The notes under the pieces were generated by a model, which saw nothing but the letters and a program-made list of their open reading frames with translations, was not told the origin of the DNA and did not search any database. Both the position numbers and the translations under genes were made by a program. DNA of 64,000 nt from OMG group bacterium (GTDB lineage Bacteria; Pseudomonadota; Gammaproteobacteria; Pseudomonadales; Azotimanducaceae): the NCBI GenBank assembly GCA_012267385.1, contig JAAXGW010000024.1:19536-83535 (forward strand). The letters are read 5' to 3'. Numbering within the stretch: position 1 is the stretch's first letter; the number at the start of each line of letters is the position of its first letter. This document shows positions 7,366-37,977 of this stretch, in pieces.

Positions 7366-7374
7366 TTTCTCACC

Positions 7375-12323: not shown

Positions 12324-12633
12324 TTGATCTACTGCCGTACCAATACGTTGATGGAAATACAGCTAGCAAATCCTGTCGCTCGTTCTTGTTGAACTTCAGT
12401 CCTAGAGATATTTGTCTGCATTAATGCCCTTGTACAGCCTGAATAGTTCAAAGTGAATTACGTGATATTATGTTCATATATTATAAGCACTAACAAATTC
12501 GACGCGTCATGAAAATCAAGCTCATGTGTGGAGCTGGCAAGAGAAAGAACTCTTGTCCAATCTTACCGTCTAACAATCACCACTAATTGCGATCAAAGTG
12601 CTCAATACAGTAGCTTATTTATTAACGTAGAGA

Positions 12634-14415
12634 CTATTCGGACACATATACCCGTAAAGTCTTGACTTGTTCAGTTGTGAAAGTTGAATCTCCATAACCG
12701 GCGCTCAACAATTGCTCCGCAACATCGGACTGTACCTCGGTGTTCGGTATCTTTGAAATCACTTCCATAATTTCGGAAGCTCGATCGTAAATTGTCAACC
12801 GTGATACTAATTGGTAGAAATAATACGAGTTCCGCTCCTCGGGAATCGAGGAGCTCAGCGTTATAACCTCATCGATCCGATTCTTCTTGGCAAATTCGAT
12901 GCCGACGTCAATGGTTTGCGATACCCGATTCTCGCCACGCACCTGGCTTAGTAATTCCTTAGCTGTATCTAGCCGGTTGGCGTACAACAGTGAACGAATA
13001 ACGCTCGACTCTAGATTCGGGTATACATCGTCTGAGATAAATTCTTGAACAGCTATTTTCATAGCTTGTTCCGGTTCTTCAAGAGCATACTCTCCAAGAA
13101 CTTCGCTCAATAGGTTATTACGAAATGTTGATCCTTTTTTCGTATTTGTCTGTACCCATTCCAACGCTTGCTTCGGTTCATCATCCGACCAGTTTCGAAT
13201 GATGGTTCGTGTAGCACTACGTAAATTCGTGCCTGGCAGTGACCGAAAAGATGAGATTCGGTCAAGTACATCCTTTGGACTGTCCAATGCAAGTTCCGCA
13301 GCAGCCGCGGACAATACGCTGCTCCTATAGAACCGAGGTATATCCATCAATCGTTCCAATACGGTGTTAGGATCTGTTTCCGCCCAAGCATAAACCAACG
13401 TTTGCATCATCGAATTTCGAAATTGAGAATTGGGTAAATCTTGAACCGCTTGAAACGCTTCTTCTGCATTATCGTTTACCCAATAGTTGATTAAGTGTTG
13501 CGCTAGCCCTGGTCGAAAAATTCGCTCGCTGTCTCCGAATAAGTAATCAAGTGCGACAACACGATCGTGTCCAGTTACAAAATCGAAAAGTTCGTTCCAA
13601 AGACTTTCTCTTAATCTTGCGTTTCCGATTTGAGGAATAATGTTCATTCCATCGAGTTGATACCACTTATCCACAATCTGCCGATACAAATCCATTTGTA
13701 GAAAATCATCGATTTCATCATTAGCTAGTAAATCTAGTGCTTTAGCTGGTTCTTGATCCAATAGCTCAAATGCTTCGAGTTCTCTATGCCACGCTACTAA
13801 CTCAGATTCGAGACTGTGTGTGCTCGATATCGAAAGCAACTCTTCGCTGGATAGACTGTTCTGTTCTGCAAAAATGGCGCGCAATACGGAATGTTGTTCC
13901 GATTGTGTTAGTTCAGTCGTGGCCGATAACACTTGTTCTAAGTTGACTTTGGACCAACATGCGAACACTACTCGTAGAAGAACGAGTCGTCGGTGTTCGT
14001 CAAAATCGACTAAACTTGCTAAAGCCTCCTCAGGAGAAATGTGGACTAAGAACTCGACCAACATCTCCTGTAGTGTATAAAGGCGGGTATGCCAGGGAAG
14101 ATTTGAACTTTTCTTGATTAATTTCTTCAAGTCGTGCTGATTGAGAGTACTCAGTGACTCTGTCAATCCAAAAAAGTCCGATTGGCTAAGTTCATCGGAA
14201 AAAATCGTATCAAATCCACTAGCGAGCCTCTGCGTATCCGTGGAATCGACCGTGTAAGGAGACGAACCCATGCTGAAATTCGAAGAGCGAGTTGTCCAAA
14301 CAATGATCGAATATACAACGACGCCGACCACTACTCCAATCAACAATCCGGTGAGTAGAGTCGTGCGCACACTGAATCTCGAGGGGAACTCATTGCCTTT
14401 TGGCGCGCTACTCAT
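12634..14415 (-). CDS. A-type membrane-anchored helical-repeat protein (pair 1)
   Basis: Long ORF paralogous to the four other A-type genes. It ends ...TEQVKTLRVYVSE. The ORF track starts at TTG 14448. ATG 14415 (MSSAPKGNEF...) gives an N-terminal length matching the paralogues. Single TM: LLTGLLIGVVVGVVVYSIIVW. Confidence 0.8.
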   Translation of the reverse strand: MSSAPKGNEFPSRFSVRTTLLTGLLIGVVVGVVVYSIIVWTTRSSNFSMGSSPYTVDSTDTQRLASGFDTIFSDELSQSDFFGLTESLSTLNQHDLKKLIKKSSNLPWHTRLYTLQEMLVEFLVHISPEEALASLVDFDEHRRLVLLRVVFACWSKVNLEQVLSATTELTQSEQHSVLRAIFAEQNSLSSEELLSISSTHSLESELVAWHRELEAFELLDQEPAKALDLLANDEIDDFLQMDLYRQIVDKWYQLDGMNIIPQIGNARLRESLWNELFDFVTGHDRVVALDYLFGDSERIFRPGLAQHLINYWVNDNAEEAFQAVQDLPNSQFRNSMMQTLVYAWAETDPNTVLERLMDIPRFYRSSVLSAAAAELALDSPKDVLDRISSFRSLPGTNLRSATRTIIRNWSDDEPKQALEWVQTNTKKGSTFRNNLLSEVLGEYALEEPEQAMKIAVQEFISDDVYPNLESSVIRSLLYANRLDTAKELLSQVRGENRVSQTIDVGIEFAKKNRIDEVITLSSSIPEERNSYYFYQLVSRLTIYDRASEIMEVISKIPNTEVQSDVAEQLLSAGYGDSTFTTEQVKTLRVYVSE

Positions 14416-14476
14416 GACAAATCCAAATCGTCCGTTTCTTTGCTTCAACAGTCAACACGATTGTTAGTGCCTACTG

Positions 14477-16243
14477 TCACTGATTGGATTCGTCGAGTAC
14501 AAAAGCACGAACCATTTCGAGCTCTGCCTCTGACAAATAATCTTCTTGCTGCAACACGCCAATTGCAATCATGCTTCGAATCTCAACATTGTCCATTTGT
14601 GGAAGTTCTTCAAGAAGCGACTCAGCATTAATTTGCAGCCATGGCCAAACCAACCGGCGATAGAAATTCGGTCTCATTGACTTCTCGAGAGTCTCTCCTA
14701 GTGCAAGCGCGTCATCGATCCGACCGGCTTCTATGAGAAAATCACTCACTCTATTGAAAACATACGGATTAGCAGAGTCTCGAATTTGCGGTAACAGTGC
14801 CATTCCTTCGTCGATTCTTCCCTCTCTGAGTAGAGCTAAGACAACACCATCTTCTACCGCACTCTCTACCGGTTGTTTGAGTGCAATCTCCATTGCTTTG
14901 GCTGAATCGGAAAGCGCTAGTTGTTCCAAGCCATACCGCAACCTCCATCGACCATTAAAGGTACCTTGATCCATGTTTTCAAGTATCCATTGCACTGCAG
15001 CTTCAGGATCCCTTCGACTCCAAATATTTACAAATGAACTCGTCGCCTCTTGAGTATTAATTCCTATTAGTCTAAATTGTGCGAGTAATTCGAGTACTTC
15101 ACTAGGTGAAGAATTCTCGGCTATTCGGTAAATTGCGTCGCGAGCCACTGAACTCCGGAAGTCCTCCGGTACTAAGTCAATATGTTCGAGAACCTGACCA
15201 GATAATACATTCACCCAGGTTATCAACAAGTACTTGACTTCAGACTTCATAGACTCCATGTATGCATCTGAAGTAATGGTGCGTATAGCGTTTATTGGAT
15301 CTTCATCAGCTAATGCTCTAAATGCCACATTTCTGAAAGCCTGTTCAGTTTCCTCGGGCAAGGACAATAGTTGATTCCAAGCGATCGTAGGGTTGGTAGC
15401 AACAATTTCGGCGACGACAGGACGCCAAAGAATATATGATCTTTGAGTGAACAATTCTCCAACTACACTTAGCATAGAGCCGATGTTATCCTCACTCTCG
15501 CGCGCGATCCAGCGACGGGTAATCTTCTGGAGTGCTGTTTGCTTCTGAAAGTCTGAAACGTTAGCTTCGATCACTAAGTTAAATGCGTTACTTGGTTCGT
15601 CGATTACTTTAACAAGTTCAGCTTCAAATACCCACTGATCGAAGTAATCGGTGATGTCTAACGATTCCACTATTTCAGTTAATTCGGCTTCCGTCAAACT
15701 ACCCTGATGATGCAAAACTATTTTGATTGCACTACCTTTCCATGGTTCTGTCAATGACGAAAATGCCCGCAAAGCTTTGCGAGGTGCGATTGCGCTCCAC
15801 TGTATCGCTACTATTTCAAGTAAAGTCCCCCATCGTACGCGTTCTGTTTCCCAGATCAGCTCCAATGCCTTCTCTGAGTCGAGACGAGCGAGTTCAGAGA
15901 AGAGCAAGTGTTGTACCGAGTATAAATTCTCGGCGAGTTCGAGCGTGAATGTGTGCGAAAGTAAATCCGCAATCTGCTTCGCACTCTTACCTTCCAATAA
16001 TTGGTAAAGAGCGAACCGTCGATCAACGACACTCTGAAGCCCGATGATTTCTGGTAAGTCTCTCGGTACCGAGGCGAGTGCACCACTGCTTAAGCTATTA
16101 GTTAGAGTCGGGTGTAGTGTACTTTCGTTAGAAGACCATCTTTCAATTGTTTGATTCGGTGGCAGTAACAGAAAAGAAGGTAGTAGGCCCAGTCCAATCT
16201 CGCCGGTCAAACCGATGAGCAATATCACCCACTTCTTTTTCAT
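14477..16243 (-). CDS. B-type membrane-anchored helical-repeat protein (pair 1)
   Basis: Paralogue of the other B-type genes. It ends ...LSEAELEMVRAFVLDESNQ. The likely start is ATG 16243 (MKKKWVILLIGLTGEIGLGLL...); the ORF track begins at TTG 16255. Confidence 0.8.
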   Translation of the reverse strand: MKKKWVILLIGLTGEIGLGLLPSFLLLPPNQTIERWSSNESTLHPTLTNSLSSGALASVPRDLPEIIGLQSVVDRRFALYQLLEGKSAKQIADLLSHTFTLELAENLYSVQHLLFSELARLDSEKALELIWETERVRWGTLLEIVAIQWSAIAPRKALRAFSSLTEPWKGSAIKIVLHHQGSLTEAELTEIVESLDITDYFDQWVFEAELVKVIDEPSNAFNLVIEANVSDFQKQTALQKITRRWIARESEDNIGSMLSVVGELFTQRSYILWRPVVAEIVATNPTIAWNQLLSLPEETEQAFRNVAFRALADEDPINAIRTITSDAYMESMKSEVKYLLITWVNVLSGQVLEHIDLVPEDFRSSVARDAIYRIAENSSPSEVLELLAQFRLIGINTQEATSSFVNIWSRRDPEAAVQWILENMDQGTFNGRWRLRYGLEQLALSDSAKAMEIALKQPVESAVEDGVVLALLREGRIDEGMALLPQIRDSANPYVFNRVSDFLIEAGRIDDALALGETLEKSMRPNFYRRLVWPWLQINAESLLEELPQMDNVEIRSMIAIGVLQQEDYLSEAELEMVRAFVLDESNQ

Positions 16244-16333
16244 AATGCTGTGCAAAGATCTAGTGCCTAAACTTAGAGACTGTCGGTCGTAGAGTTTGAT
16301 CCTTTAACAAAGTTCTATGTTACCGAGCGTGCA

Positions 16334-18127
16334 TTACTCCGCCACATATGAGCGTAGAGTTTCAATTTGATCTGAGTTGAAGTATCTTTCTAGAGTCCAA
16401 CCATTAAAGAATCGATCAACCACACCCGTTTGTAGTTCTGCTGACGGTAATCTCTCAATCAAGTCCAATATGTCGGATGTCCGATCATACAAGAATCCTG
16501 TTGCGATATTAAAAAAGTAATTAATTCTCTGAGCTTCGGGTACTAATTCAGCTAACGAGAGAGTATCGTCCATGCGATCCGCTTCGACTAGTGCCGCACC
16601 CACCATTGTGGCGGTATTCAGGAGCATATTCTCGTCTTGAATTTTGTTGAGCAATTCGACTGCGGTGTCCAAGTGTTCCTCCTGCAGGAGAGCACTAATC
16701 ACACTTCGTTCTAAACCGTACCACCTATTTTCTGGTTTAATTTCTTCAACAGCAATGGTCATCGCTTTCTCTGGGTCGATGGGTGCGTAAAAAAAGATTA
16801 TCTGGCTTAAAAACTCGATACGTTTTCTCGAGCCTTCTTGTGTATTGGTTAGAACCCATTTAACTGCAGCCTCTGGCGCGGCGTTCGCCCACGAAACAAG
16901 CACCATCTCTACTGCATGATCGACGTTCGCACCAGGAACTGAACGAAACGCTTCGATTCGCTCAAGTGCTTGTATGGGATCCTGTCGTGCAAACTGACCG
17001 GCAACTGCAGTCATTACATCACGTCTATATAACCGGGGAATTTCCAACAATCGGTCCAAGATAGAATTAGGCTCTTCTCGGCCCCATTGCGAAACCACAG
17101 TACTAAGCATTGAGTTGCGAAAAGACGATTTAGAGAAGTCGAGTACTGCTTGTAACGCCTCTTCTCTGTCCTCTCTAATCCAACCATCAAGTAACCAATA
17201 ACCGATCTGGGTTCTCCTACTCTCATCAATGTTACTAATGAACTCCAGCGCAGCTATACGGTCTCGTTCCGCAACCAACTCAAAGAGAGCTTTTGAGACT
17301 CCATCACTTAATGGTGCGTCGTAGAGTAGCGTAAGAATGTTCAATCCATCGTACTGAAACCATTCCTCAACAATCTGTCGATATAGGTCTATCTGCAGAC
17401 GATCGTCGACTTCGTCCTCTAAGAGTGACTCAAAAGCCCTTGAAGGATCTTGATCCAAGATTTCGTTGATCGCTAACTCTCGCTCCCATGCGACAGAGTG
17501 AGATTCGAAGTCAAAATTTTTCGCCAGCGAAGAAAATTCTTGGGTAGAGAGATCACTCCGCTGTTCGAAAATGGTTCTTAATGCGACATTCAAATCTGGC
17601 TGTGGTAATTCAACGGCCGCCGAAATAGCGTCTTCAATGTTCGTCGCCGACCAATGTGTAAATACCAGCGCTAACAATGAGAGTCTTTGATGCTCTGGAA
17701 ATTGTTCGAGACTTGCGATTGCTTCTCTAGGCGATACTTGAATTAAGAGTTCGATCAACATCTCTTGAACCGTATACAGTCGAGGTGTCCAAGTTTGGGT
17801 CGAACTCTTCGCTATTAAGTCCTTTAATTGATGCTGATTTAAAGTCTTGAGTACCGTAAGTATGTGATGCAGTTCGGTATGTCTCACTTCCGTGGCGAAA
17901 ATCCAATCTAGTTCTGATTCGTCACTTTCAATCGAAGACGAACTCGATCCATTTTTGCCGTCATCAGAGACAGTTTGAACCAACCCACCACTGTTAACGT
18001 CCAACATCCAATTCACGGCCAAGTAACCTGTTACTCCAACCGCTAAACCAATAGAAACGCAAGCCACCAAAATCAGAGATGGACTATTTTTGCGGGTACG
18101 GTTCAATTCCGTATTGGTACTATTCAA
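16334..18127 (-). CDS. A-type membrane-anchored helical-repeat protein (pair 2)
   Basis: 597 aa with a TTG start. TM: LILVACVSIGLAVGVTGYLAV. It ends ...SDQIETLRSYVAE. Confidence 0.8.
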   Translation of the reverse strand: MNSTNTELNRTRKNSPSLILVACVSIGLAVGVTGYLAVNWMLDVNSGGLVQTVSDDGKNGSSSSSIESDESELDWIFATEVRHTELHHILTVLKTLNQHQLKDLIAKSSTQTWTPRLYTVQEMLIELLIQVSPREAIASLEQFPEHQRLSLLALVFTHWSATNIEDAISAAVELPQPDLNVALRTIFEQRSDLSTQEFSSLAKNFDFESHSVAWERELAINEILDQDPSRAFESLLEDEVDDRLQIDLYRQIVEEWFQYDGLNILTLLYDAPLSDGVSKALFELVAERDRIAALEFISNIDESRRTQIGYWLLDGWIREDREEALQAVLDFSKSSFRNSMLSTVVSQWGREEPNSILDRLLEIPRLYRRDVMTAVAGQFARQDPIQALERIEAFRSVPGANVDHAVEMVLVSWANAAPEAAVKWVLTNTQEGSRKRIEFLSQIIFFYAPIDPEKAMTIAVEEIKPENRWYGLERSVISALLQEEHLDTAVELLNKIQDENMLLNTATMVGAALVEADRMDDTLSLAELVPEAQRINYFFNIATGFLYDRTSDILDLIERLPSAELQTGVVDRFFNGWTLERYFNSDQIETLRSYVAE

Positions 18128-18201
18128 GGTCTAACCGTGCTTTTAACATGCTGTGTCGAAAATTACAAAACGAACATTCGGATAATCGGTAAGTACTCCG
18201 T

Positions 18202-19986
18202 TTAGTTTGTTTTTTTGGGTACGAACGACGTAATAAATTCAATCTCTGCTTCGGTCAAGTAAGGGTAAAACTGTTGCTCCGATAACACACTTTGCGCGAT
18301 CGCCTTTCGCATTTCCGCAGTCGGCAATTTGGGTAAGCGTTCGAGCAACGACTCTGGCTCAAAGCGCACCCACGGCCTTGCCATACTGCTGTAGAACAAA
18401 CGTTTCTCTGATTCTTCTAAACCGTCCGCTAAGGCGAGCACATCATCAATCCGCCCACCTACGATCAGAAACTGATTTATGCCGTCGTAATAACGTGGAG
18501 ACTCTGGCGAGCTTCTGATTTTTGGAATGAGCGATAGAGCACTGTCGAATTTTCCCTGTCTTAATAAAGTCATCACTACGCCCTGTTCAAGTGCCATGTC
18601 GGCAGGCTGCTCAAGTGCCAACTCCATAGCTCTCTCTGGATTTGACAACGACAGTCTTCCCAGCGCGAACTCAATCGTCCTCTGCACCATCCAGTTTTCT
18701 TGGTCCATGTTTTCCAGTGCCCATTCAAACGCTGCAATAGGGTCGTCGAGACTCCAAGTCCTTACCAATTCTTCAGTTGCATCATCCACGATATTGCCCT
18801 GCAATTTCAACTGCGCTAACAACTCAATCACTTCGCTCGGTGGTGAGCTTTTTGCGAGGTGATCGACAGCTAAGTTAATTGCCGATGTCTTGAAATTCTC
18901 CGGTACGAGCTCAAGGTTTTCAAGTAAGCGATCCGCCTCAGCACGAATCCAGGGTATCAGTACTGAGTAGAAGTTTGAACCCTCGGCATCCACGTACTCT
19001 TTGGTAGTGATGGTCTGGATCGCAGTTTCTGGATCGTGCTCAACCCATACTTTAAAGACATACCTCTTAAATTGCTGTTGCAATTCAGTCGGCATGGATG
19101 ATAGTTGTTCCCACGCGAGCTCCGGATTCATGGCTGCAATTGCCGTGACGACAGGTATCCAAAGACCTCTTGATTCATTGAGAATTTCGTAAGCGAGACT
19201 CAGCATGGAACTGATGTCGTCTGTTCCAGCGCGCTCGATCCAGCGATTCGTAATGTCTAAGAGCATGCTGCGCTTATGAAACTCTGAAGTATTAGCTTTT
19301 GTCGCTAAGTTGTACGCGGATCGTGGTTCGTCAATCACTGCTTCGAGTTGAGTGTCATAATTCCACCTTGCAAAGTGATCAGCGATATCTAGCGTCTGTA
19401 CTACTTCTGCGATGGTGGTATCCGTGAAACTTCTTTGATTATCGAAGACCGCTTCGATTGCTTGGCTCTTCCAAGGTTCACCGAATAACGAAAAAGTTCG
19501 CAATGCTTCTTCTGGCGAGACCATGCCCCAATGCATTGCCACAATGTTGAGAAATGTACTCCACCTTGTTGGCGCGGTCTCCCAAACAAGATTCAACGAC
19601 TTCTCTGGGTCAATACGCGCCAATTCAGCAAAGAGTAGTCTTTGCACTGAGTACAGGTTTTTGGAGTAGTCGAGATTCAACGATTGACGAAGTAACTCTG
19701 CAACTTGGTCCCCACTTCTTTGTTCGAGCAACTGGTACAGCGCCCCACGTCGCTCTGAAGCCATTTCTAAGACTATGATTTCTTCGAGATCGCTACTAAC
19801 ATTGGCCAGAGTCTCTTGTTCATTGTTGTTTGCAGAGGGTGATTCCTGGATTGTGTGTAGGGGAGAATCGCTTGTGTCTGTACTGTTCGTAGGGAACACA
19901 AAAAACGAAATCAAAACTCCTAAGCCAACACCTCCAACCAGACTGGCGAGAACGAGCAGGAGACGGTTTTGCTGCGTCTTGATCAT
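18202..19986 (-). CDS. B-type membrane-anchored helical-repeat protein (pair 2)
   Basis: It ends ...LTEAEIEFITSFVPKKTN. The likely start is ATG 19986 (MIKTQQNRLLLVLASLVGGVGLGVL...); the ORF track begins at TTG 20010. Confidence 0.8.
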   Translation of the reverse strand: MIKTQQNRLLLVLASLVGGVGLGVLISFFVFPTNSTDTSDSPLHTIQESPSANNNEQETLANVSSDLEEIIVLEMASERRGALYQLLEQRSGDQVAELLRQSLNLDYSKNLYSVQRLLFAELARIDPEKSLNLVWETAPTRWSTFLNIVAMHWGMVSPEEALRTFSLFGEPWKSQAIEAVFDNQRSFTDTTIAEVVQTLDIADHFARWNYDTQLEAVIDEPRSAYNLATKANTSEFHKRSMLLDITNRWIERAGTDDISSMLSLAYEILNESRGLWIPVVTAIAAMNPELAWEQLSSMPTELQQQFKRYVFKVWVEHDPETAIQTITTKEYVDAEGSNFYSVLIPWIRAEADRLLENLELVPENFKTSAINLAVDHLAKSSPPSEVIELLAQLKLQGNIVDDATEELVRTWSLDDPIAAFEWALENMDQENWMVQRTIEFALGRLSLSNPERAMELALEQPADMALEQGVVMTLLRQGKFDSALSLIPKIRSSPESPRYYDGINQFLIVGGRIDDVLALADGLEESEKRLFYSSMARPWVRFEPESLLERLPKLPTAEMRKAIAQSVLSEQQFYPYLTEAEIEFITSFVPKKTN

Positions 19987-20055
19987 GTTATCGATATTTT
20001 TACATTTCAAGGCTTAGTTGTACAACAGTAAGCAAAAAAACTGTCAGGCTCACTA

Positions 20056-21819
20056 TTACTCCGCCACGAACGATCTCAGAGTTTCGAGTTGTGTTTCGGT
20101 GAAGTCCCCATCCACTCCTCTTTCGTTCAACAATTTCTTAGCTACATCTGATTGTAATTCAGCCGTAGGTAGACTAGCGATCATGTCCAAGACTGTAGAC
20201 GAGCGTTCCCAGATTAACACCCTTGAAGCCACCCTATAAAAGTAGTCCAATCTGTCATTCTCTGCAATCGAGTCTTCTAAAGCGAGCGTATCTTCCATCC
20301 GATTGTGTTCAATGAGTTCAACACCAATATAGGTGTATTCTGAAAGCTTGATCTCATCTCGTACGGACTCTACTAATTCAATCGAGGTGTCGAATCTATC
20401 TGCGGACAGTAGAGATCTGATGACAATCGACTCTAGATTGCCTACCCAGCTCGACGTATGCTCGTCAATAGCGATCGTCATAGCCCGTTGTGGTTCGACT
20501 AATGCGTATTTAGGAAGTACCTCGCGCAAAAGCTCTACCCGTTCTTTTGAGTCTTCTTTAGCAAAGGATAAAACCCAATCCAAGGCAAACTTTGGAGCGT
20601 CAGCAGACCATGTCCTAACAATGGACTCCACAGCCCTATCCACATATGTACCTGGTACCGAGCGCAATTCTTCAATTCGTTCAAGCGCGTCCTTAGGATC
20701 CTCCCGGGCGAATTTAGTAGCGGCTGCCGACAGAGCGTCAGCTCGATACAACCGTGGAATTTCCAACAATCGATCCAATACGACATTAGGACTCTCTTGT
20801 GCCCAATCAATAGCTACGCTACGTAACATTGAATGGCGGAAAAATGACTTAGGTAGACTCTTGACAGCATTGAGTGCTGATTCAGGGTCTTCGACAACCC
20901 AATCTTCGATGAGCCGATATCCCAGACCCCTTTGTCTACTATCCTCAACGCTACTAAAGAAGATAAGAGCTACCTCGCGATCTAACTGAGTAATTTGTTC
21001 AAAGAGTTCCCCGAAAACCCCTCCACCTAATGGAGCGTCGTCGATTAGCAAAACAATGCTTAGTCCATCGGTTTTGTACCAATGCTCTGCAATCTGTCGA
21101 TACAAGTCTATTTGCTCCCCGTCGTCGATTTCGTCATTGATAAGCAAGCTGAATGCTTCCGAAGGATCTTCGTCAAATATCTCGTAGATCTTAAGTTCTT
21201 GCTTGATTGCGGCTAACTCAGACTCGAAGCCAAGTCTATCCGTATCAGAAGATAGATCGCTACTTGGAAGGTCGCTCCGAACCGCAAAGATAGCTTGAGC
21301 GGCTATGGACCTATCTGATCGTGGTAATACCGCTAGCGCGGCGAGAGCTTCGTCGAAATTCGCTACGGACCAGTGAGAGAATATGACGTGTAACAGCGAA
21401 CGCCTTTGATGCTCTGAAAATTTTGCTATACTCGTTTTAGTTTCTTTAGGCGAGATCTGAGCAACATGCTCAACCAACATCTCTTGTATCGTATCGAGCC
21501 TATCGGTTCGAGGTTTCTTCGAACTGCGTTCTATCAATTCGAGAAGTTCGTGTTGACTAAGAGTGTTTAGAGATTCACTTAGCTTGAGGAGGTCGGAATG
21601 GTCGAGATCGTCAGCAAAAATCCAATCTAAATCAGCAAGGTCTTCGCCTGTCCCGGAACGACTAAGTTCTGACTTAGCGTGATTTGAATCCACTCTAGCT
21701 TCCGCATTATTGAGCACCTGCGACAAAAGCAAATATGAGCCCAATCCGACAGCCAAACCAATCGTCAATCCAATTAACGGAATAGACAACGCATTAAATT
21801 TAGTAGTTCGTCCTTTCAC
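20056..21819 (-). CDS. A-type membrane-anchored helical-repeat protein (pair 3)
   Basis: 587 aa with a GTG start. TM: LSIPLIGLTIGLAVGLGSYLLL. It ends ...TQLETLRSFVAE. Confidence 0.8.
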   Translation of the reverse strand: MKGRTTKFNALSIPLIGLTIGLAVGLGSYLLLSQVLNNAEARVDSNHAKSELSRSGTGEDLADLDWIFADDLDHSDLLKLSESLNTLSQHELLELIERSSKKPRTDRLDTIQEMLVEHVAQISPKETKTSIAKFSEHQRRSLLHVIFSHWSVANFDEALAALAVLPRSDRSIAAQAIFAVRSDLPSSDLSSDTDRLGFESELAAIKQELKIYEIFDEDPSEAFSLLINDEIDDGEQIDLYRQIAEHWYKTDGLSIVLLIDDAPLGGGVFGELFEQITQLDREVALIFFSSVEDSRQRGLGYRLIEDWVVEDPESALNAVKSLPKSFFRHSMLRSVAIDWAQESPNVVLDRLLEIPRLYRADALSAAATKFAREDPKDALERIEELRSVPGTYVDRAVESIVRTWSADAPKFALDWVLSFAKEDSKERVELLREVLPKYALVEPQRAMTIAIDEHTSSWVGNLESIVIRSLLSADRFDTSIELVESVRDEIKLSEYTYIGVELIEHNRMEDTLALEDSIAENDRLDYFYRVASRVLIWERSSTVLDMIASLPTAELQSDVAKKLLNERGVDGDFTETQLETLRSFVAE

Positions 21820-21918
21820 TGGTGCTACAGTCTTGGTGCTTTTCTCGGTTTCAATTCTCTACTTGATTCCGCGGAGAAAACGGAGTTCTTGTCGAATCGA
21901 AGGACATCTTGTGCTCGT

Positions 21919-23699: not shown

Positions 23700-23772
23700 C
23701 TTGGTCGGAACCTATCAATACTGTGTGGATTAAAAGAACGAGAGTGATCATGCGAGTCTCTAGCTGCTCTGC

Positions 23773-25560
23773 TTACTCCGACACGAACCCTCTAAGAGTC
23801 TCGAGTTGTTCTGTTGTGAATTCCCGCGCCGAATACTCTTGACTCAACAATTGCTCTGCGATTCCTGCCTGCATCTCAGTCGTGGGCAATTTAGCAATCA
23901 GCTCTAGGACGGCGGACGTACGACTAAATATAACTGCCCCGGACACGACGCGATTGAAATAATCAATCTGCTCCTCGTCAGTAAGTGAATCGGCTAAGCT
24001 TAGAGTGTCGTCCAAACGGTCGTGTTCGAGGAGTTCTAGGCCTACCTCTTGATATTCCCACAACTTGACCGCGTCGTGAACCCGGTCTAGCAATTCGATT
24101 GCTTCGTCGAACTTGTCGGCAAATAATAACGAACTTATAACATGGTGCTGCAAGTTTGAACTGTTATAGAAGGCTGGATTGAATTCGGCAACTGCTATGG
24201 TCATCGCCTGTTCGGGGGCCACAAGCGCTAATTCTGGAAGTACCTCACGTAACAGTTGCTCACGACTAGATGTGCCTTTCTTTGAATTGCTTTGTACCCA
24301 ATCCAATGCCTGTTTAGGGTTAGCCGACGCCCAAGTATTTACTACCGACTCAATCGCACGGGGTACGTTTGCACCAGGAACATCATGCAATGATGAGAGT
24401 CGGTCAAGCACCTCTTTAGGTCCGTCTATTGCAAGTTCGCCAGCTGCGGTGGATACCGCATCATCCCTAACCGACCGTGGAAGTTCCATCAACCGGTCCA
24501 ATACGGCAGCAGGATCCTTCCTTCCCCATTCATAAGCAAGACTGCTCAGCATGGACCTACGAAAATTCGATTGGGACAGACTTTTGATTGCTTGCAATGC
24601 GTCGTCTACGTCAGCTGCGACCCAATGATCGATCAACGGATGACTCAAAGACGATCGTCTAGTGTCCTCAACAGTACTGAACAAAACAAGCGCTGCCTTA
24701 CGATCTTGTTCGGTGACCTGCTCAAATAGCTCACTAAAAACTCCCGAGCTTAGTCTTGCATCTTCGAGTTGAAGAATGATGCTCATGCCGTCAGATTGAT
24801 ACCACTTTTCCGCAATCAGACGATACAGTTCAATTTGCTGACTGTCATCGATTTCGTCCTCGGCAAGCAATTCGATCGCTCTAAATGGTTCTTGATCCAA
24901 TAACTCATACGTCTTGAGTTCTTGTTCTCGAATTAACAATTCCAATGAGAGATTGAATCTGCTCACCAATTCAGACAACTCTTCGAGAGTCAGATCACTA
25001 CGAGCTCCTACGATTGTGTTGATTGCGACTTGTCGATCCGTGTGAGACAGTTCAGTTACAGCAGTCAGAGCTTGTTCTAAACTCTGTTTCGACCAATTTG
25101 CAAATATTACGCGTAGCAATGCATGTCTTCGGCTGTCCGAAATTTGTGCAATACTTGTTAAAGCATCCTCGGGAGAACTCTCCACCAAGTACTCAATCAA
25201 AGTCTGTTGAAACGTGAACAGTCGCGATGTCGATGGTTGGGAAATACTTTGCTTTAGTAAATCCTGCAATTCGCGAGGACTGAGTGTTCGAAAAGACTCA
25301 CTTAACTTGCGAAGGTCTGAATAGCTAAGTTCATCTGAAGTATGCACATTAACCCCGATCGATTCGTCACCGAATATCGACACATTCACTTGACTACTAT
25401 CCTTTTCTGGATCAGTCTTGTGCGAGTCAGATTCGGTTGCGTTGAAAAAAATCCAAACCACGAACAGGGAAGCGGAAGCTCCGATTACCAAACCAGCAAA
25501 TATAGTCGAAAATGTCCTTAATATCGGGATGAGAATTCTGTGTGTAGGAATATTCTTCAT
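23773..25560 (-). CDS. A-type membrane-anchored helical-repeat protein (pair 4)
   Basis: 595 aa with an ATG start. TM: FSTIFAGLVIGASASLFVVWIFF. It ends ...TEQLETLRGFVSE. Confidence 0.8.
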   Translation of the reverse strand: MKNIPTHRILIPILRTFSTIFAGLVIGASASLFVVWIFFNATESDSHKTDPEKDSSQVNVSIFGDESIGVNVHTSDELSYSDLRKLSESFRTLSPRELQDLLKQSISQPSTSRLFTFQQTLIEYLVESSPEDALTSIAQISDSRRHALLRVIFANWSKQSLEQALTAVTELSHTDRQVAINTIVGARSDLTLEELSELVSRFNLSLELLIREQELKTYELLDQEPFRAIELLAEDEIDDSQQIELYRLIAEKWYQSDGMSIILQLEDARLSSGVFSELFEQVTEQDRKAALVLFSTVEDTRRSSLSHPLIDHWVAADVDDALQAIKSLSQSNFRRSMLSSLAYEWGRKDPAAVLDRLMELPRSVRDDAVSTAAGELAIDGPKEVLDRLSSLHDVPGANVPRAIESVVNTWASANPKQALDWVQSNSKKGTSSREQLLREVLPELALVAPEQAMTIAVAEFNPAFYNSSNLQHHVISSLLFADKFDEAIELLDRVHDAVKLWEYQEVGLELLEHDRLDDTLSLADSLTDEEQIDYFNRVVSGAVIFSRTSAVLELIAKLPTTEMQAGIAEQLLSQEYSAREFTTEQLETLRGFVSE

Positions 25561-25626
25561 ACTATACGATCACAAGAATGTGTACGGAACGATTTCTCGA
25601 AAACAAGTCTTGGTAGACTGTTCGAG

Positions 25627-27411
25627 TTAGTTGGTGTCATCGGGAATGAACGTCCGAACAAACTCTGACTCCTTTTCTGTTAGGTAATGAAAATTCTCAT
25701 GATTTTTGAGAACTTCTGCGGCGAAGATCGCGCGAACTTCTGCAGTCTCTAAATGTGATAACTGTTCGAGTAGAGAGTCCGGATCGCTGTATAACCAAGG
25801 AAAGACCAAGTTTTGATAGAAGCGAGTCCGTTCCGATTCCTCCACTTTCTCTGCAAGTGCCAGCGCTTCGTCAGTCCTGCCTGCACCCACTAGGGAATAA
25901 GCCACGTTGTGATATATCGAACCGTACCAACGCTTCTTCCGTACCTTTGGTGCTAAGGTAAGTGCTTTGTCGAATTCTCCCAACCTAAGAAGCTTCATCA
26001 CAACGTTGACGTCTAGTGAAGACTCCTCAGGTTGCTCGAGTGCTATTTTCATTGCTCTCTCAGGATCCGATAATGCCAGTTGCTCCAAGACATCTCCCAA
26101 CATATACTGTCCGTCATACCGACCTTGTTCTTTGTTTTGAAGTACCCACTCAAGTGCTGCGAGTAAGTCTTTACGACACCAAATTTTCACAAATGAATCC
26201 GTTGCTTCGAGGGTATTTAATCCCCGTGATTTCAACTGATCAAGTAATTCAAGCACGTCGTTCGGTGGTGAGCTGTGTGCGAGGTTTTCGACTGCCATGC
26301 GAATTGCTAGAATCTTGTCAGCTTCTGGTAGCAGTTCGATGTGTTCTTGAAATTCATCCGCTACAGCATCAACCCACGATCGTATACACGAATAACGATA
26401 AAACTCCATCTGAGCCATAATTTCTCTGTTCTGTAATACTTGTATTGCAGCGTTCGGATCGATTGCAGCCCACTCTCTGAAGATTGATCCACTAAACCGT
26501 TTTTGGATTTCTAACGACATAGCGGTCAGCTGTTCCCACACGAAACTTGGATTGTTTTTCGTGATTTCGGTCACAACTGGAGCCCAAAGACCACGCGTGT
26601 CGCCGAACACCTCGAACACAAGATTTAGTTTGGCACTGATGTCGTCAGTACCTGTTCTTTCGATCCATCGATTCGTGATCAGTGTAAGCATTTTGCTTTT
26701 ATCTAAATATGAAATATCAGCCTGTAGCGTGAGGTCAAAAGCTTTTCTTGGTTCATCTATGACCCCTGCAAGCTCTATTTCATACTTCCACAAAAGAAAC
26801 TGCTCGGTGATGTCTATAGAACCCGCTAGTTCAGCTAACTCCGTTTCGTTTAAACTCTGTTGGTGATCAAAAACGGTTCTTGTTGCTCTACCTCTCCACG
26901 GTTCTTTCAATGCCGCAAACGCCTTTAAAGCTTCCTTAGGAGCTATCAAACCCCAATGAATCGCTATCTCATCAAGTAATGTACGCCAGCGCGCGCGTTC
27001 TGTCTCCCAAATCAGTTCTAAGGCTTTTGCTGGTTCAATTCGTGCGAGTTCCGCGAAGAGTATTCTTTGAGCAGGGTACAAGTTCTCAGAACTGTCGACC
27101 GTGAGGGCACTTCCTAGTAATTCGGCAATCTGCTCCCCATTCTTGTTTTCGAGCAGCTGGTAGAGAGCGATGCGTTGCTCTGTTACCTTTTCTAGCTGAA
27201 CTATCTCGACAAGGTTTGTAGGAACTGAATCGGAATCTTGACGGTCCGTTTCTACAGCTACAGATGGAACAGTGGTAGTTTCTTGTGGCGGCGACTGCAC
27301 ATTCGTGTCGTTCTTTGGAAAAAGTATCAAAGAAATCAAAAAACCTAAACCTATGCCACAAGTCAAGCTGGTCAAGGTAAGAATAAGTTGTTTACGTTTC
27401 ATCTTCATCAT
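25627..27411 (-). CDS. B-type membrane-anchored helical-repeat protein (pair 4)
   Basis: 594 aa. It starts MMKMKRKQLILTLTSLTCGIGLGFLISLILF and ends ...LTEKESEFVRTFIPDDTN. Confidence 0.8.
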   Translation of the reverse strand: MMKMKRKQLILTLTSLTCGIGLGFLISLILFPKNDTNVQSPPQETTTVPSVAVETDRQDSDSVPTNLVEIVQLEKVTEQRIALYQLLENKNGEQIAELLGSALTVDSSENLYPAQRILFAELARIEPAKALELIWETERARWRTLLDEIAIHWGLIAPKEALKAFAALKEPWRGRATRTVFDHQQSLNETELAELAGSIDITEQFLLWKYEIELAGVIDEPRKAFDLTLQADISYLDKSKMLTLITNRWIERTGTDDISAKLNLVFEVFGDTRGLWAPVVTEITKNNPSFVWEQLTAMSLEIQKRFSGSIFREWAAIDPNAAIQVLQNREIMAQMEFYRYSCIRSWVDAVADEFQEHIELLPEADKILAIRMAVENLAHSSPPNDVLELLDQLKSRGLNTLEATDSFVKIWCRKDLLAALEWVLQNKEQGRYDGQYMLGDVLEQLALSDPERAMKIALEQPEESSLDVNVVMKLLRLGEFDKALTLAPKVRKKRWYGSIYHNVAYSLVGAGRTDEALALAEKVEESERTRFYQNLVFPWLYSDPDSLLEQLSHLETAEVRAIFAAEVLKNHENFHYLTEKESEFVRTFIPDDTN

Positions 27412-27480
27412 ATATTCGATTAGTGTTGCTAAGAACTCTCACCTGAATTGGCTTGATCACTATGTTCATCAATTGTTGTA

Positions 27481-29283
27481 TCACTCTGCGACTAATGACC
27501 TTAAAGTCTCCAATTGTTTGTCCGTGAAATATCTCTCGATAGCCCATGTATCATCCAATGTCTGATTGACAACTTCAGTTCGTACCCGAGCATCTGGTAT
27601 CTTCGTGACCAGAGTTAGAACTTCTGAGGAGTGGGTATCACTCAGCTTGCGGACTACCCAACGAAAATATGCTGCTCTGTCAGTTTCAGGAAGAACTTCC
27701 GAAATTGAAACAACGTCGTTGAAGCGGTTTTCTAATACTAATTTTTCGGCCACACCTGCATATGTATAAACACGGTTACTCTTAGGTACTTGATCTAATA
27801 AACCGATAGCCGCCTCGAACTGACCATCGCGAATTAGTGAGTCGATCACGCTATGTGTGAGTCCGAGTTCGCCTTGTGCGGGGTTAGGATCTTCTGAAAG
27901 AGCAAATTCCATCGCTTTTTCGGGTTGAACGAGCGCGTATTCACCAATTACCCAATTGAGCATCCGATCTCGTTGCACAGACTCAGTTTCTATGTTCTCC
28001 CGTACCCAATCTAACGCTTGAGCAGGATACTTTGAAGACCAACTGTAAACGAACGTCCTCTCAATTTCGTTGTTAAATGCACCGGGAATAGCCTTCAAAG
28101 AAGGGAGAAGCCTCAGAATTTCATCCGGACTAGTTGCGCCTAGGGTGTTAACGATGGTAAACACGGCCGAAGATCTATGTTTTCGTGGTATTTCAATTAG
28201 TCGCTCAACTACCTCCAGAGGTTGAGTCCTTCCCCACGCACTCAACAGCGTCCTATAAACAGAAGAGCGAAACGATGGATTCGTTAGCGATCTTGCGGAG
28301 TCCAGAGCATTCTCGACGTCAACTGCTACCCAATTTTCCATCAATGGATACATCAAACTAGTTTGTTGATACTGACTGAGCTGCTCTAAGTATTTAAGTG
28401 TTCCTACGCGGTCTTGAGCTACGAAAGGAACAATCATCTCGGTGTATAACGTCCGGGAATTATTAACGAAGTCGAATCGCTTTAGAACATCGAGTCCCTC
28501 AATTTGAAACAATTCATTCAACACTTGGTTGAACAGATCTGCTTGTTCGGAATCTTCGACATCATCAGTAAGGAGCAAATCAAAAGCAGTACTTGGATCT
28601 TGATTCATGTATTCATAAATTTTTTGTTTATGCTTTTGCTCTACGATCAAATCCGCAATCTCTGAGTTGTTGAATGACTCGAGCGTAAACATCACACCGT
28701 CTGTTAAGTCAAGCTCTCGCAGCATGGTTTCTAACACTATGTCTCTATATGGTTGCTTTAGTCCCGCGGTAAGCTTGAAAGACTCTTCCAAATCCCCATG
28801 AGCCAGATGGCGAGCCATAATTCGTAGTAGGTTCTCAACTCTTTGTTCCTCAAACCACACTATGCTTGCGAGAGCTGCAACGGGAGACTGTTCAACTAAG
28901 TACTCGCACAACATTTCCCGAATCGAATGTAGGCTGCTCGTATAAGGTAACGAACCAGTGCGTTGGAAGGCTTTGCGCAACTCTTCCGAATCAAAAGTTT
29001 GTAGGTCCTTACTAATTTTTTGTAGGTCCGACATATTGAAAACGGTGCTTGAAGTTTCTTCATACGCCATTCGTTCGAGCAAAGCATCCGTATCTGAAAC
29101 AGGTCCTAAAGTGTTACCCAAGGAGCCTGCCGATGAAGTGTAATTTTCAGGGGATCCCAACCTAGCTGAGAGAGAGTAGAAGAAAACACTCAATGCAAAT
29201 CCCACAACCAATCCAAGCGTAACCAAAAGAAACTTTTGCTGTACGTTCAAAAACTTAACGTTTGGTTTCGAATCGCTCACCAT
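27481..29283 (-). CDS. A-type membrane-anchored helical-repeat protein (pair 5, most divergent A)
   Basis: 600 aa. The ATG is preceded by AGGTG. TM: FLLVTLGLVVGFALSVFFYSL. It ends ...DKQLETLRSLVAE. Confidence 0.8.
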   Translation of the reverse strand: MVSDSKPNVKFLNVQQKFLLVTLGLVVGFALSVFFYSLSARLGSPENYTSSAGSLGNTLGPVSDTDALLERMAYEETSSTVFNMSDLQKISKDLQTFDSEELRKAFQRTGSLPYTSSLHSIREMLCEYLVEQSPVAALASIVWFEEQRVENLLRIMARHLAHGDLEESFKLTAGLKQPYRDIVLETMLRELDLTDGVMFTLESFNNSEIADLIVEQKHKQKIYEYMNQDPSTAFDLLLTDDVEDSEQADLFNQVLNELFQIEGLDVLKRFDFVNNSRTLYTEMIVPFVAQDRVGTLKYLEQLSQYQQTSLMYPLMENWVAVDVENALDSARSLTNPSFRSSVYRTLLSAWGRTQPLEVVERLIEIPRKHRSSAVFTIVNTLGATSPDEILRLLPSLKAIPGAFNNEIERTFVYSWSSKYPAQALDWVRENIETESVQRDRMLNWVIGEYALVQPEKAMEFALSEDPNPAQGELGLTHSVIDSLIRDGQFEAAIGLLDQVPKSNRVYTYAGVAEKLVLENRFNDVVSISEVLPETDRAAYFRWVVRKLSDTHSSEVLTLVTKIPDARVRTEVVNQTLDDTWAIERYFTDKQLETLRSLVAE

Positions 29284-29358
29284 TTCACACCTAAGTGTTC
29301 AGATGCGGAGAGCAAGTTTATGGTTCCAAAATCTCTTCTCATTGAATTCGATCTCGGC

Positions 29359-31134
29359 TTATGGGTCAATGTTAAGCGGTATATAAGAACGAACGACTTC
29401 GATCTCGTCATCAGTTAAATTTCCCGAAGGACGATCCATTCGCAATATCATTTCCGCAACACGTGCACGATGTTCTTCATTGGGTATCTCCGAAAGTACT
29501 GGAAGAAATTCATTGATATCCTTGAATACCAAATATCGTGCTAAGTTCACAAAATAATCAAGTCTGGTGTTTTCGGAGAATTTCTCAGCAAGCGCTACAG
29601 CTTCTCCTATTCGTCCGTTTTCAATCAACAGTGCGCCAGCCTGTGAGTACAAATGCCTCGCACCCGTTCCTGCTCGTAGTCTAGGAAGCAACTCAAGCCC
29701 TTGATCAAGCCATCCTTGCGAGAGTATCGCTTGAACAACAGATTCCTCAGCTCTACTGCTAACAGATTGCTCAAGCGCAAATTCCATCGCCATCGTAACA
29801 TCAACGATCGCAAGTTGCTGAAGTATGGATGAAAACACGTAATGTTCTTTGTCCATATATTCACTGGCCCAATGTAGAGCTGCGACTGGATCTTGAGTGC
29901 TTAACCAGAAAAAATATGTTTCCAACGCATTCTGTGTGTTAACTCCCACGCTTTGAATTTGATTCAATTGATCGAGTAGTTCCGACGGCTCTATTTGACG
30001 AACTAAATTTCGGACAGCAGGTATCAACATATTCGCCCGGTGGGATTCTGGTACCAAGTCTATTTTTTCGGGTAATTGTTCCCAAACTGTAATAGCCCAC
30101 GTTGCATACAGCTTTCTTAGTTCTTCACTCTCCTGGACCATGTACTCTGATTCATTCAGCTCGTTTAGAGCACTATCTGGATCAAGCTTTACCCAAACTT
30201 TAAACACTTCGTCGTTCAGCATCTTCTGAGCATCCAACGACAGGGTCGACAATTGTTTCCACGTTAGTTTCGGATCATTGGCAGCAAGTTTGGAAACAAC
30301 CGAACGCCACTGGTCCTGTTCGTACTGTGCCTCGAAAAAAGTTTCATGAACCAGACTCAGCATCGAACGGATGTTGTCGATACCTTCTCTTTCTATCCAT
30401 CGATCGGTTATCTGATTCGCCATTTCACTCTTTCGAAACGCCGGGATATCGGCCTGTAGTATCAATTCAAAGCCAGCTTTGGGCTCATCTAGCACTTCAT
30501 CAAGCTGTGTTTCCACGGTTATCTCATTAAGAACGCGGGTAGTACCATAAGCTTCCGCGAACTCGAGCAGTTCAGCGTCTGAAAAATCTTGGCGGGTCCG
30601 GAAGATAGTTCGAAAAGCTTTTGACTTCCAGGGTTCCCCAAGTTTTGCGCTGGTTCGCATGGCACGTTGGGGGGCAGCACTAGCCCAGTCTTCAAAAACC
30701 ACAGTAAAGAACTCGTCCCAAAGTGACCGTTCTGATCGCCACACTAGTTCTACAGAGAGTTCAGGGTTTAGTCGCGCTAGAGCGGCGAAAAGCAATCGTT
30801 GAATCGACGGCAAATGTTTAGTAGTGCCAATCGCGAACGACTCTATGAGTAAGTCAGCAATCTGCTCCCCACTCTTATGTTGAAGCAACTCATAGAGCGC
30901 TAAGCGTCGCGCGGATGCAGTGCCTAGCTCGAGGATTGAAGCTAGATTGGTTAGTCCAGAAGCAGTATTCTCGTTGTCGTCGTCGTCTTTATCCGAAGAC
31001 GGAAGGCTTTCCTCAACTTGAGGCGTTGTGACAGTCTGTGAGTCGGTCCGTGGGAGAAACACGAACGCAACTAAAAGACCCAGTCCAATGCCAATGACTA
31101 CACCACTGAGTATTAGGACGACGGGTTTTTGCAT
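29359..31134 (-). CDS. B-type membrane-anchored helical-repeat protein (pair 5, most divergent B)
   Basis: It ends ...LTDDEIEVVRSYIPLNIDP. The likely start is ATG 31134 (MQKPVVLILSGVVIGIGLGLLVAFVF...); the ORF track begins one codon earlier at TTG 31137. Confidence 0.8.
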   Translation of the reverse strand: MQKPVVLILSGVVIGIGLGLLVAFVFLPRTDSQTVTTPQVEESLPSSDKDDDDNENTASGLTNLASILELGTASARRLALYELLQHKSGEQIADLLIESFAIGTTKHLPSIQRLLFAALARLNPELSVELVWRSERSLWDEFFTVVFEDWASAAPQRAMRTSAKLGEPWKSKAFRTIFRTRQDFSDAELLEFAEAYGTTRVLNEITVETQLDEVLDEPKAGFELILQADIPAFRKSEMANQITDRWIEREGIDNIRSMLSLVHETFFEAQYEQDQWRSVVSKLAANDPKLTWKQLSTLSLDAQKMLNDEVFKVWVKLDPDSALNELNESEYMVQESEELRKLYATWAITVWEQLPEKIDLVPESHRANMLIPAVRNLVRQIEPSELLDQLNQIQSVGVNTQNALETYFFWLSTQDPVAALHWASEYMDKEHYVFSSILQQLAIVDVTMAMEFALEQSVSSRAEESVVQAILSQGWLDQGLELLPRLRAGTGARHLYSQAGALLIENGRIGEAVALAEKFSENTRLDYFVNLARYLVFKDINEFLPVLSEIPNEEHRARVAEMILRMDRPSGNLTDDEIEVVRSYIPLNIDP

Positions 31135-31185
31135 CAAACTCAGGAGGACTTATTCTTTGTTAGTACAGTGTCGATCACATCCAGC

Positions 31186-32428: not shown

Positions 32429-32505
32429 AGGCGCGTAGCTCAGTTGGCTAGAGCATCACCTTGACATGGTGGGGGTCGTTGGTTCAAGTCCAATCGCGCC
32501 TACCA
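32429..32505 (+). tRNA. tRNA-Val (anticodon GAC)
   Basis: AGGCGCGTAGCTCAGTTGGCTAGAGCATCACCTTGACATGGTGGGGGTCGTTGGTTCAAGTCCAATCGCGCCTACCA. The acceptor stem is AGGCGCG/CGCGCCT, with U8, D-arm GCTC/GAGC, anticodon loop TTGACAT and an encoded CCA. The body is very close to E. coli tRNA-Val(GAC). Confidence 0.9.
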
Positions 32506-37939: not shown

Positions 37940-37977
37940 ATCAACAACGAAAATCATAGACAAGAAGATCGGTAATT

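Follow-up and report, generated by a model that had tools for sequence, protein, structure and literature searches.

Tandem gene pairs inherited as units encode a family of predicted membrane-tethered alpha-solenoid proteins in an OMG group gammaproteobacterium

A 64,000-nucleotide stretch of the genome of an OMG group bacterium (Gammaproteobacteria; Pseudomonadales; Azotimanducaceae; GenBank assembly GCA_012267385.1, contig JAAXGW010000024.1, positions 19,536 to 83,535 of the forward strand), hereafter the window, carries a tandem array of paralogous genes of two types, A and B, arranged as B-then-A pairs, and a second array in which genes of types C and D are paired in the same way. Comparison with related loci shows that the pair is the unit of inheritance of the A/B array. 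The products are predicted to be membrane-anchored alpha-solenoids of a family that the domain models searched do not cover. We suggest, leaning to this reading without calling it probable, that the pairs are heterodimeric, non-catalytic periplasmic alpha-solenoid binding modules kept as a fast-turnover repertoire.

The A/B array consists of ten consecutive minus-strand open reading frames (ORFs) at 12634–31137, of which nine are intact. From its first gene to its last it comprises B5 (29359–31137, 592 aa) and its partner A5 (27481–29283, 600 aa), B4 (25627–27411, 594 aa) and its partner A4 (23773–25560, 595 aa), the B3 pseudogene (21919–23699) and A3 (20056–21819, 587 aa), B2 (18202–20010, 602 aa) and A2 (16334–18127, 597 aa), and B1 (14477–16255, 592 aa) and A1 (12634–14448, 604 aa). 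The intact products thus span 587–604 aa, with an uncertainty of up to 11 aa, because in-frame ATG codons lie downstream of the TTG/GTG starts (at codon 2 in B5, 5 in B1, 9 in B2 and 12 in A1) and several of these starts probably sit a few codons too far upstream. Units measure 3622–3677 bp from B start to A stop, the B-to-B period is 3689–3755 bp, the intergenic gaps are 28–99 bp, and the GC content of 43–47% is that of the remainder of the window. A preliminary description of this DNA, made from the letters alone, had reported ten minus-strand genes at exactly these coordinates, nine intact and one decayed, in units of 3.62–3.68 kb with gaps of 28–100 bp, and all of this holds. The decayed gene, B3, was delimited by tblastn with B2 and three-frame translation; it carries a frameshift near 23205–23220 and an in-frame stop at 22957–22959 (W to stop, ITKR-stop-VER), and is therefore a genuine pseudogene, its ORF split into 21919–22923 and 23136–23699. 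Its counterpart is intact in the related loci L002, where it is 94% identical, and L004.

The two types had been thought to share only motif-level similarity. BLASTP overturns this view: A and B proteins align over ~500–620 residues at 20–27% identity (E 1e-25 to 1e-40), and a joint alignment of both types is nearly gap-free. Judged from their sequences, A and B are two subtypes of one family and full-length paralogues. Within a type the copies are homologous, as described earlier, but more diverged than the ~40–55% identity estimated by eye: 29–46% among A copies and 34–53% among B copies, with A5 the most divergent A copy (29–34%) and B5 at 34–36% to the other B copies.

To follow the pairs across genomes, we compared eight related loci, L001–L008. 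The B–A alternation, first seen in the window, is kept in all of them save at a deletion scar in L007: the gene order is BABABA in L001 and L005, (A)BABABABA in L002, L004 and L008, ABABABA in L003, B(frameshifted)ABABA in L006, and B, scar, B, A in L007. Across 28 adjacent B-to-A pairs the B–B and A–A identities were correlated with r=0.967, a value that 0 of 2000 permutations reached, and none of 21 within-pair comparisons was discordant, that is, had one partner >70% and the other <55% identical. In a control in which each A was taken with the next downstream B (21 pairs), the correlation was r=0.61 and 7 of 17 comparisons were discordant. Breakpoints therefore fall between pairs and never inside them, and the pair is the unit of inheritance.

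These comparisons bear on an alternative in which the proteins act alone or as homo-oligomers, as a membrane-tethered periplasmic scaffold or chaperone, and the B–A alternation is a by-product of duplication and deletion of two genes at a time. Such independent action would be in keeping with the shared architecture of the A and B paralogues, with gaps that are alike inside and between pairs and with the absence of charge complementarity, and tandem copying of two genes together would be enough to raise the mirror correlation. It accounts poorly for breakpoints that occur in 7 of 17 comparisons between pairs and in 0 of 21 inside them, for two subtypes kept distinct at ~23% identity in every genome examined, for the 3 bp that separate C2 from D2, and for the maintenance of C–D fusions in diverged genomes (both described below). 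We consider it unlikely.

The five pairs of the preliminary description stand at their coordinates but not as the extent of the family in the window. Four more members lie at 36029–43860, past uvrB and an FGE-sulfatase-like gene and on the opposite strand to the A/B array, bringing the total to 14 paralogues in seven pairs. C1 (36029–37939, plus strand, 636 aa) is followed by its partner D1 (37978–39722, plus strand), and C2 (40162–42069, plus strand, 635 aa) by D2 (42073–43860, plus strand, 595 aa), which begins 3 bp past the C2 stop; a spacer of ~440 bp separates the two pairs. The four match the family hidden Markov model (HMM) at E 1e-54 to 1e-90 (C1, 1e-86; C2, 8e-90; D2, 5e-72), and C2 has 25 homologues with >45% identity. 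Because C1 and C2 are 70% and D1 and D2 54% identical, against only 25–30% between C and D, this array too is made of two heterotypic pairs. In D1 a single frameshift falls at a G5 run (39427–39431), across which tblastn with D2 reads two frames (37978–39426 and 39393–39707); the gene could be a pseudogene or reflect a sequencing error. L007 is without the whole C–D array; in it the FGE-sulfatase-like gene (34606–35583 in the window, minus strand; PF03781, E 3e-56) adjoins a 344-aa ORF (43910–44944 in the window, minus strand; lipoprotein-like N-terminus, …LLITSSC; no family match), which marks the insertion site.

Natural C–D fusions lend partnership indirect support. Two such proteins, P0042 (1156 aa) and P0193 (1073 aa), were found in separate assemblies and share 85% identity, so far as sequence can tell a maintained fusion. 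In both, the C body runs on into a D body whose own membrane helix has been lost, so the two bodies would lie on the same side of the membrane.

Next, we examined the anatomy of the proteins on an AlphaFold2 model of A2 built on a 21-sequence alignment (mean predicted local distance difference test score (pLDDT) 83; predicted template-modelling score (pTM) 0.60). Residues 1–70 score <50 and most of residues 90–597 >90. After a membrane helix (residues 16–44) and a disordered linker reaching to ~70–84, the model is all-helical, with ~30 helices paired into ~15 hairpins of 27–38 residues (average ~32 aa), several of which bear the signature R…W-[AS]-x-x-[DN]-P-x-x-A-x-x-W…LP. From residue ~208 on, the short second helix of the hairpin is more conserved than the long first helix. 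Across 40 diverse family members only P228 and W424 are invariant; near-invariance is limited to Trp, Pro, Ala, Val, Leu and the start Met, and no Asp, Glu, His, Lys, Arg, Ser or Cys belongs to this set, which argues for a scaffold rather than an enzyme. The bodies are strongly acidic (net charge −28 to −45, pI 4.5–4.8), with 0–2 Cys and 7–14 Trp. The build described at first sight, namely a basic N-terminus, a hydrophobic helix, an S/T/D/E/N-rich linker and a helical body, is thereby confirmed.

Each protein has one hydrophobic segment of 19–23 residues, preceded by 5–38 residues. The flanks of this helix carry a net charge of +2.9 on the N-side and −1.2 on the C-side, a bias present in 162 of 174 homologues, and by the positive-inside rule the N-terminus is predicted to be cytoplasmic and the body periplasmic, as the preliminary description had proposed. 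GxxxG, a motif classically tied to helix–helix packing, occurs in the membrane helix of 75% of members against 27% in composition-matched shuffles. Because one would not expect a cleaved signal peptide to preserve this motif, the helix is likely retained and packing. Directly after the helix, at residues ~29–44, the B-type proteins B1, B2 and B4 have P-x-N-x-T (PPNQT, PTNST and PKNDT; B4 site at ~27300–27320), and B5 has PRTDS in its place.

The same features weigh on whether the proteins are instead exported 'eukaryotic-like' repeat proteins of a sponge symbiont, their helix serving as a Sec signal and their solenoid binding host proteins at the cell surface or in the host. The carrier genomes are metagenome-assembled genomes (MAGs) from sponge metagenomes, the alpha-solenoid fold has a weak TPR, PPR and ELYS resemblance, and fast turnover with relaxed constraint is typical of host-interaction families, all of which export would explain. 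A 19–23-residue hydrophobic segment with GxxxG nearly threefold over shuffles is unexpected for a cleaved signal peptide, however, and in the C–D fusions a single anchor holds both bodies; in addition, the stretches scanned, all outside 44–64 kb of the window, contain no secretion-system genes beside the arrays. Export is in our judgement quite unlikely.

To place the family, we searched collections of known domains, proteins and structures. No window subtype had an above-threshold match in Pfam or NCBIfam, types A, B, C and D gave no match to PADLOC at E≤0.01 and none to PHROGs, and no homologue turned up in tblastn searches of 50,697 phage and 72,556 plasmid records. A word-indexed search with a 40-sequence profile returned nothing beyond the initial search, and our literature searches did not find the family described. 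In a sequence-profile search of the PDB the sole significant matches were designer PPR proteins (for example, 5i9d and 6een; E 1e-18 to 1e-23). These matches are confined to query residues ~471–531 and score 10–12 bits per stretch, with individual E-values near 1, and natural PPR10 scores E 0.45. As one query segment is matched to many identical target repeats, the low E-values are an artefact and we rejected membership of the PPR family on this basis.

Repeat models of Pfam also stayed below their cutoffs. For PPR the best window score was 12.6 bits (PPR_2, cutoff 30), and 1 of 40 family members matched (E 5e-4); for TPR it was 17.1 bits (TPR_4, cutoff 27), with TPR_19 found in 6 of 40 members (best E 0.009) and member P0101 at 24.2 bits against a cutoff of 25. 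HEAT_2 matched 1 of 40 members at E 3e-4, below threshold, and Sel1 none. ELYS (PF13934), the nucleoporin alpha-helical domain, was the most recurrent weak match, sub-threshold in A1 and A4 and present in 6 of 40 members (best E 2e-5); no window protein reached its cutoff of 28.8 bits (best A1, 17.3), the match spans only ~120 helical-repeat residues, and the taxonomic and cellular context is wholly different. Foldseek searches of the PDB with the A2 monomer and with a B4+A4 model retrieved only generic solenoids (SF3B1, importins, APC/C, mTOR and Ski3; template-modelling (TM) scores 0.08–0.29), and a search of BFVD gave nothing at E≤1e-3. A transmembrane anti-sigma factor, DdvA (8rw5, Foldseek rank 29), was also considered and rejected: the match is weak (E 3.6e-3, TM 0.17), the pre-helix segment of 5–38 residues is too short for a domain of ~80 or more residues, and no sigma-factor domain occurs among the neighbours scanned. 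The preliminary description had called the family unrecognised, and Pfam, NCBIfam, PADLOC, PHROGs, the PDB and Foldseek indeed place it nowhere. The fold class itself, as modelled, is ordinary: like TPR, PPR and HEAT solenoids, the body is predicted to be an all-helical superhelix of ~32-aa two-helix hairpins. It is set apart from them by its W-[AS]-x-x-[DN]-P-x-x-A-x-x-W signature, its membrane anchor and its predicted periplasmic location.

Relatives of the family are numerous and unnamed. The word-indexed search recovered only 13 proteins related to A2 and 28 related to C2, all without a functional name, and the few with labels are 'hypothetical protein' entries from Gammaproteobacteria MAGs. 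An exhaustive profile search of 50% clusters gave 717 representatives at E≤1e-30, 3,383 at E≤1e-10 and 8,958 at E≤1e-3; almost all of the top 150 matches are 570–690 aa long and match end to end, and the representatives sampled are unnamed and lack a Pfam domain. Among GTDB species representatives, a scan with one peptide pattern found at least six loci, the six species being a lower bound, all in MAGs labelled Gammaproteobacteria or Pseudomonadales (SB0662_bin_2, SB0677_bin_6, SB0661_bin_12, SB0666_bin_18, CO36404bin_7 and SRP109090_co2_73); the SB06xx series originates from sponge metagenomes. A more distant case is an Opitutales MAG (GCA_035485355.1, locus L012, 1182–5822) with two adjacent paralogues, P0214 among them, of 816 aa and at least 668 aa that are 38% identical. 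Like the window proteins they have an N-terminal hydrophobic helix, an S/T/N-rich linker and W-A-x-x-D-P-x-x-A-x-x-W repeats, so the repeat type is broader than the lineage of the window. They differ in being Ala-rich, in their length and more regular repeats, in their low identity to the window proteins (~23–25%) and in matching the family profile as multiple overlapping repeat matches rather than end to end; the second paralogue passes the ELYS cutoff (36.9 against 28.8 bits). The pair adjoins a gene for an RND membrane-fusion protein.

We then asked how the A/B array evolves. In relatives it always lies between uvrB and infC–rplT–pheST. Compared with L002, L004, L005 and L007, the window shows 90–100% identity in the flanking proteins and 40–94% in array genes at matching positions. 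B5 has orthologues of 79–84% identity in L005 and L007, and A5 one of 73% in L005. B4 is 93% identical to its L005 counterpart at a synonymous divergence (dS) of 0.11 versus 62% to that of L002 (dS 1.09), and A4 is 94% identical to L005 (dS 0.12) versus 51% to L002 (dS 1.74); the partners thus both stand at dS 1.1–1.7 from L002 but 0.11–0.12 from L005. For A3 and B2 the L002 orthologues are 86% and 89% identical, respectively, and orthologues in L002 and L007 are 86–90% identical for B1 and 77–89% for A1. Against L002, A2, B2, A3, B1 and B3 show dS of 0.09–0.24, no more than the flanks. The window is therefore a mosaic, in which B4–A4 resemble L005 and the genes from B3 to A1 resemble L002.

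Copy number varies as well: the locus holds ten copies in the window, at least nine in L002, L004 and L008, six in L001 and L005, and three in L007. The deletion in L007 spans A5 codon 12 to A2 codon 536 and removed seven array genes, leaving a scar (L007 positions 7219–7935) that consists of the first 12 A5 codons, an insert of ~400 bp and the last 62 A2 codons; an ORF in the scar has, read from its translation, an HNH-nuclease-like motif (CxxC…DH…N…CxxC). L007 also has ~3.8 kb (11579–15394) between A1 and the methyltransferase gene, of which only the first 320 bp are matched in the window. Most of the diversity of the array is the product of birth-and-death turnover and of swapping of entire pairs.

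The ratio of non-synonymous to synonymous divergence (dN/dS) is 0.22–0.40 gene-wide in the array, compared with 0.02–0.13 in a core housekeeping set (infC, rplT, pheS, pheT, uvrB, ATP-grasp and Alpha-E). Purifying selection acts on the family, though relaxed several-fold, which bears out the earlier view of maintained function rather than decay. When 22 orthologue-like A pairs are pooled, dN/dS falls from 0.75 in the linker, approaching neutrality, to 0.43 in the N-terminus and membrane helix and 0.30 in the body, where first helices of the hairpins stand at 0.33 and second helices at 0.23. The proposal that the pairs had diversified in specificity finds no direct support here; no region has a dN/dS near or above 1 (maximum 0.64–0.75, linker). 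A reading of the array as selfish repetitive coding DNA, or as DNA without function or in decay, we regard as scarcely credible. The B3 pseudogene, the frameshifted D1 and the dispensability of whole pairs in relatives are what such decay would leave; gene-wide constraint with a body at 0.30 versus a linker at 0.75, lengths held within 3% despite 29–53% identity, hundreds of full-length homologues and a confidently predicted fold are not.

The gene organization and the predicted anatomy allow us to propose how the pairs may work. Each B–A or C–D pair would yield two paralogous single-pass inner-membrane proteins, each with a short, basic N-terminus in the cytoplasm, a single transmembrane helix, a flexible S/T/D/E/N-rich linker of ~40 residues and an acidic alpha-solenoid of ~510 residues, whose ~15 TPR/PPR-like two-helix hairpins (~32 aa) would face the periplasm. 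The products of a pair would associate, through their membrane helices (which have GxxxG in types A and B) and through solenoid–solenoid contacts, into a heterodimeric, non-catalytic scaffold for binding, anchored on the outer side of the cytoplasmic membrane. The genome would keep a set of these modules at the fixed chromosomal site between uvrB and infC and turn it over by deletion, duplication and between-strain exchange of whole pairs. Most likely, the set would serve to present different binding surfaces to an envelope or periplasmic ligand, which might come from the sponge host, phage or a competitor.

The topology, heterodimerization, the binding function and the adaptive nature of the variation are the parts of this scheme that we infer. 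For heterodimerization, we modelled a pair by concatenating B4 (residues 61–594) to A4 (residues 46–595; 1084 residues in all). The model (pLDDT 81, disorder at the junction only) has a pTM of 0.66, which is suggestive in lying above expectation for two independently tumbling halves and only moderately informative on dimerization. The heteromeric module of the preliminary description is thus supported indirectly, by the fusions, the GxxxG enrichment and this pTM, and its heterodimer stays an inference. Besides the limited weight of the pTM, several points count against our proposal. The predicted topology comes solely from the positive-inside rule; GxxxG is missing from the C and D types; A and B bodies show no charge complementarity, both being net negative; and pervasive positive selection is absent, with no 30-codon window above 0.64 and no region above 0.75, so that the variability could be relaxed constraint plus birth-and-death turnover. 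No conserved non-family neighbour that would indicate a ligand or pathway was found in the neighbourhoods scanned. Nor did scans for promoters and terminators favour co-transcription: promoter-like sites numbered 13 against 28 expected, with none in the inter-gene gaps of the array, and, being rarer than chance, they say nothing on operon structure.

Other features of the region surround the arrays or overlap them. Long ORFs antisense to A3 (20333–20989, plus strand) and B4 (26016–26420, plus strand) recur in relatives because the sense genes are conserved, and are most likely spurious. Directly upstream of B5, on the same strand, lies a 231-aa ORF (31419–32114, minus strand) with a clear signal peptide (MKLLIALAFLVSTAAFAQ) and no library match; it is present in L005 (94% identical) and L007 (82%, dN/dS 0.22) and absent from L001. 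It may be an accessory gene, but whether it belongs to the system is uncertain. A type II restriction–modification (R-M) pair (9959–12323, minus strand), in which a TdeIII-like endonuclease (PF09520, E 8e-52) is coupled with an N6/N4 DNA methyltransferase (PF01555), lies between infC and the array; it occurs in L002 and L007 (95–97% identical) and not in L001 or L005. The FGE-sulfatase-like gene, the 231-aa ORF and the R-M genes have intermediate dN/dS values (0.10–0.22). A tRNA-Val (GAC) gene (32429–32505, plus strand) lies between uvrB and the array, and tRNA-Pro (4141–4217, minus strand) and tRNA-Asn (58908–58983, plus strand) genes elsewhere in the window. With tRNA-Val and the R-M pair adjacent, a mobile genomic island was considered and rejected, since all relatives have the array at the same uvrB–infC site and its GC content is native.

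This setting also bears on the idea of an envelope defence or immunity repertoire, in which the proteins would face the periplasm as decoys or blockers, guarding against phage entry or against toxins of competitors that act there. Such a role would explain strain-level turnover at a locus that is hypervariable between close strains, and it suits the predicted periplasmic location, the adjoining R-M system and the HNH-nuclease-like insert in the L007 scar. We nevertheless hold it to be very unlikely, because PADLOC and PHROGs give no match and homologues were not found on phages or plasmids, the array occupies a fixed housekeeping site rather than a mobile island, ~600 aa is large for an immunity protein and cognate toxin genes are not nearby, and the R-M pair is absent from several array-bearing relatives.

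Returning to paired, membrane-tethered binding modules, we note likenesses to three known systems. The eukaryotic-like repeat proteins (ankyrin, TPR, LRR) of sponge symbionts are likewise a repeat family expanded in a sponge-associated bacterium and fast-evolving, and the ankyrin and TPR proteins have been proposed to bind host proteins. The array family differs in that standard eukaryote-type repeat models miss it, in its predicted retained membrane helix, with no obvious secretion, and in its heterotypic pairs in tandem arrays. In E. coli, YfgM and PpiD are two single-pass, N-in inner-membrane proteins with periplasmic helical or chaperone domains that function as a heterodimer at the membrane surface; unlike the variable repertoire of the array pairs they are single-copy, non-paralogous and conserved, and to our knowledge they have no sequence relationship to the array family. 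The mycobacterial PE/PPE families are lineage-specific expansions of heterotypic gene pairs that encode strain-variable helical heterodimers. This analogy is one of genetic logic only, as PE/PPE proteins are short helical bundles secreted by ESX systems, their partners are not paralogues, and their sequences and fold are unrelated. What is new here is the combination of an unmodelled family, a membrane tether, heterotypic pairing inherited as a unit, maintained fusions and strain-level turnover at a fixed housekeeping locus.

A bolder version of the proposal, which we put forward as speculation and think quite improbable as it stands, is that the pairs are an undescribed class of heterodimeric membrane-tethered periplasmic alpha-solenoid receptors, strain-variable and swapped as whole pairs among sponge-associated Gammaproteobacteria, that recognize or sequester changing external ligands in the periplasm. 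Because every copy is extremely acidic, such ligands could include cationic peptides of the host, or phage or competitor proteins.

Lineage-specific expansions of repeat proteins are well known from symbionts. The symbionts of sponges are uncultured, and their persistence inside a host that is itself a phagocytic feeder is a standing question; the symbiosis factors known for them are mostly repeat proteins detected by standard domain models, which the array family escapes. It occupies ~26 kb of the genome (related assemblies are ~2.5–2.7 Mb), its locus is among the most variable between near-identical strains, and it has hundreds of diverged full-length relatives in metagenomes. At minimum, the family merits a curated profile that would unite thousands of 'hypothetical proteins'. 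If the pairs are indeed heterodimeric periplasmic binding modules, they would be a candidate for strain-specific interaction with host, phage or competitors, and a clean natural system for the co-divergence of paralogous partners.

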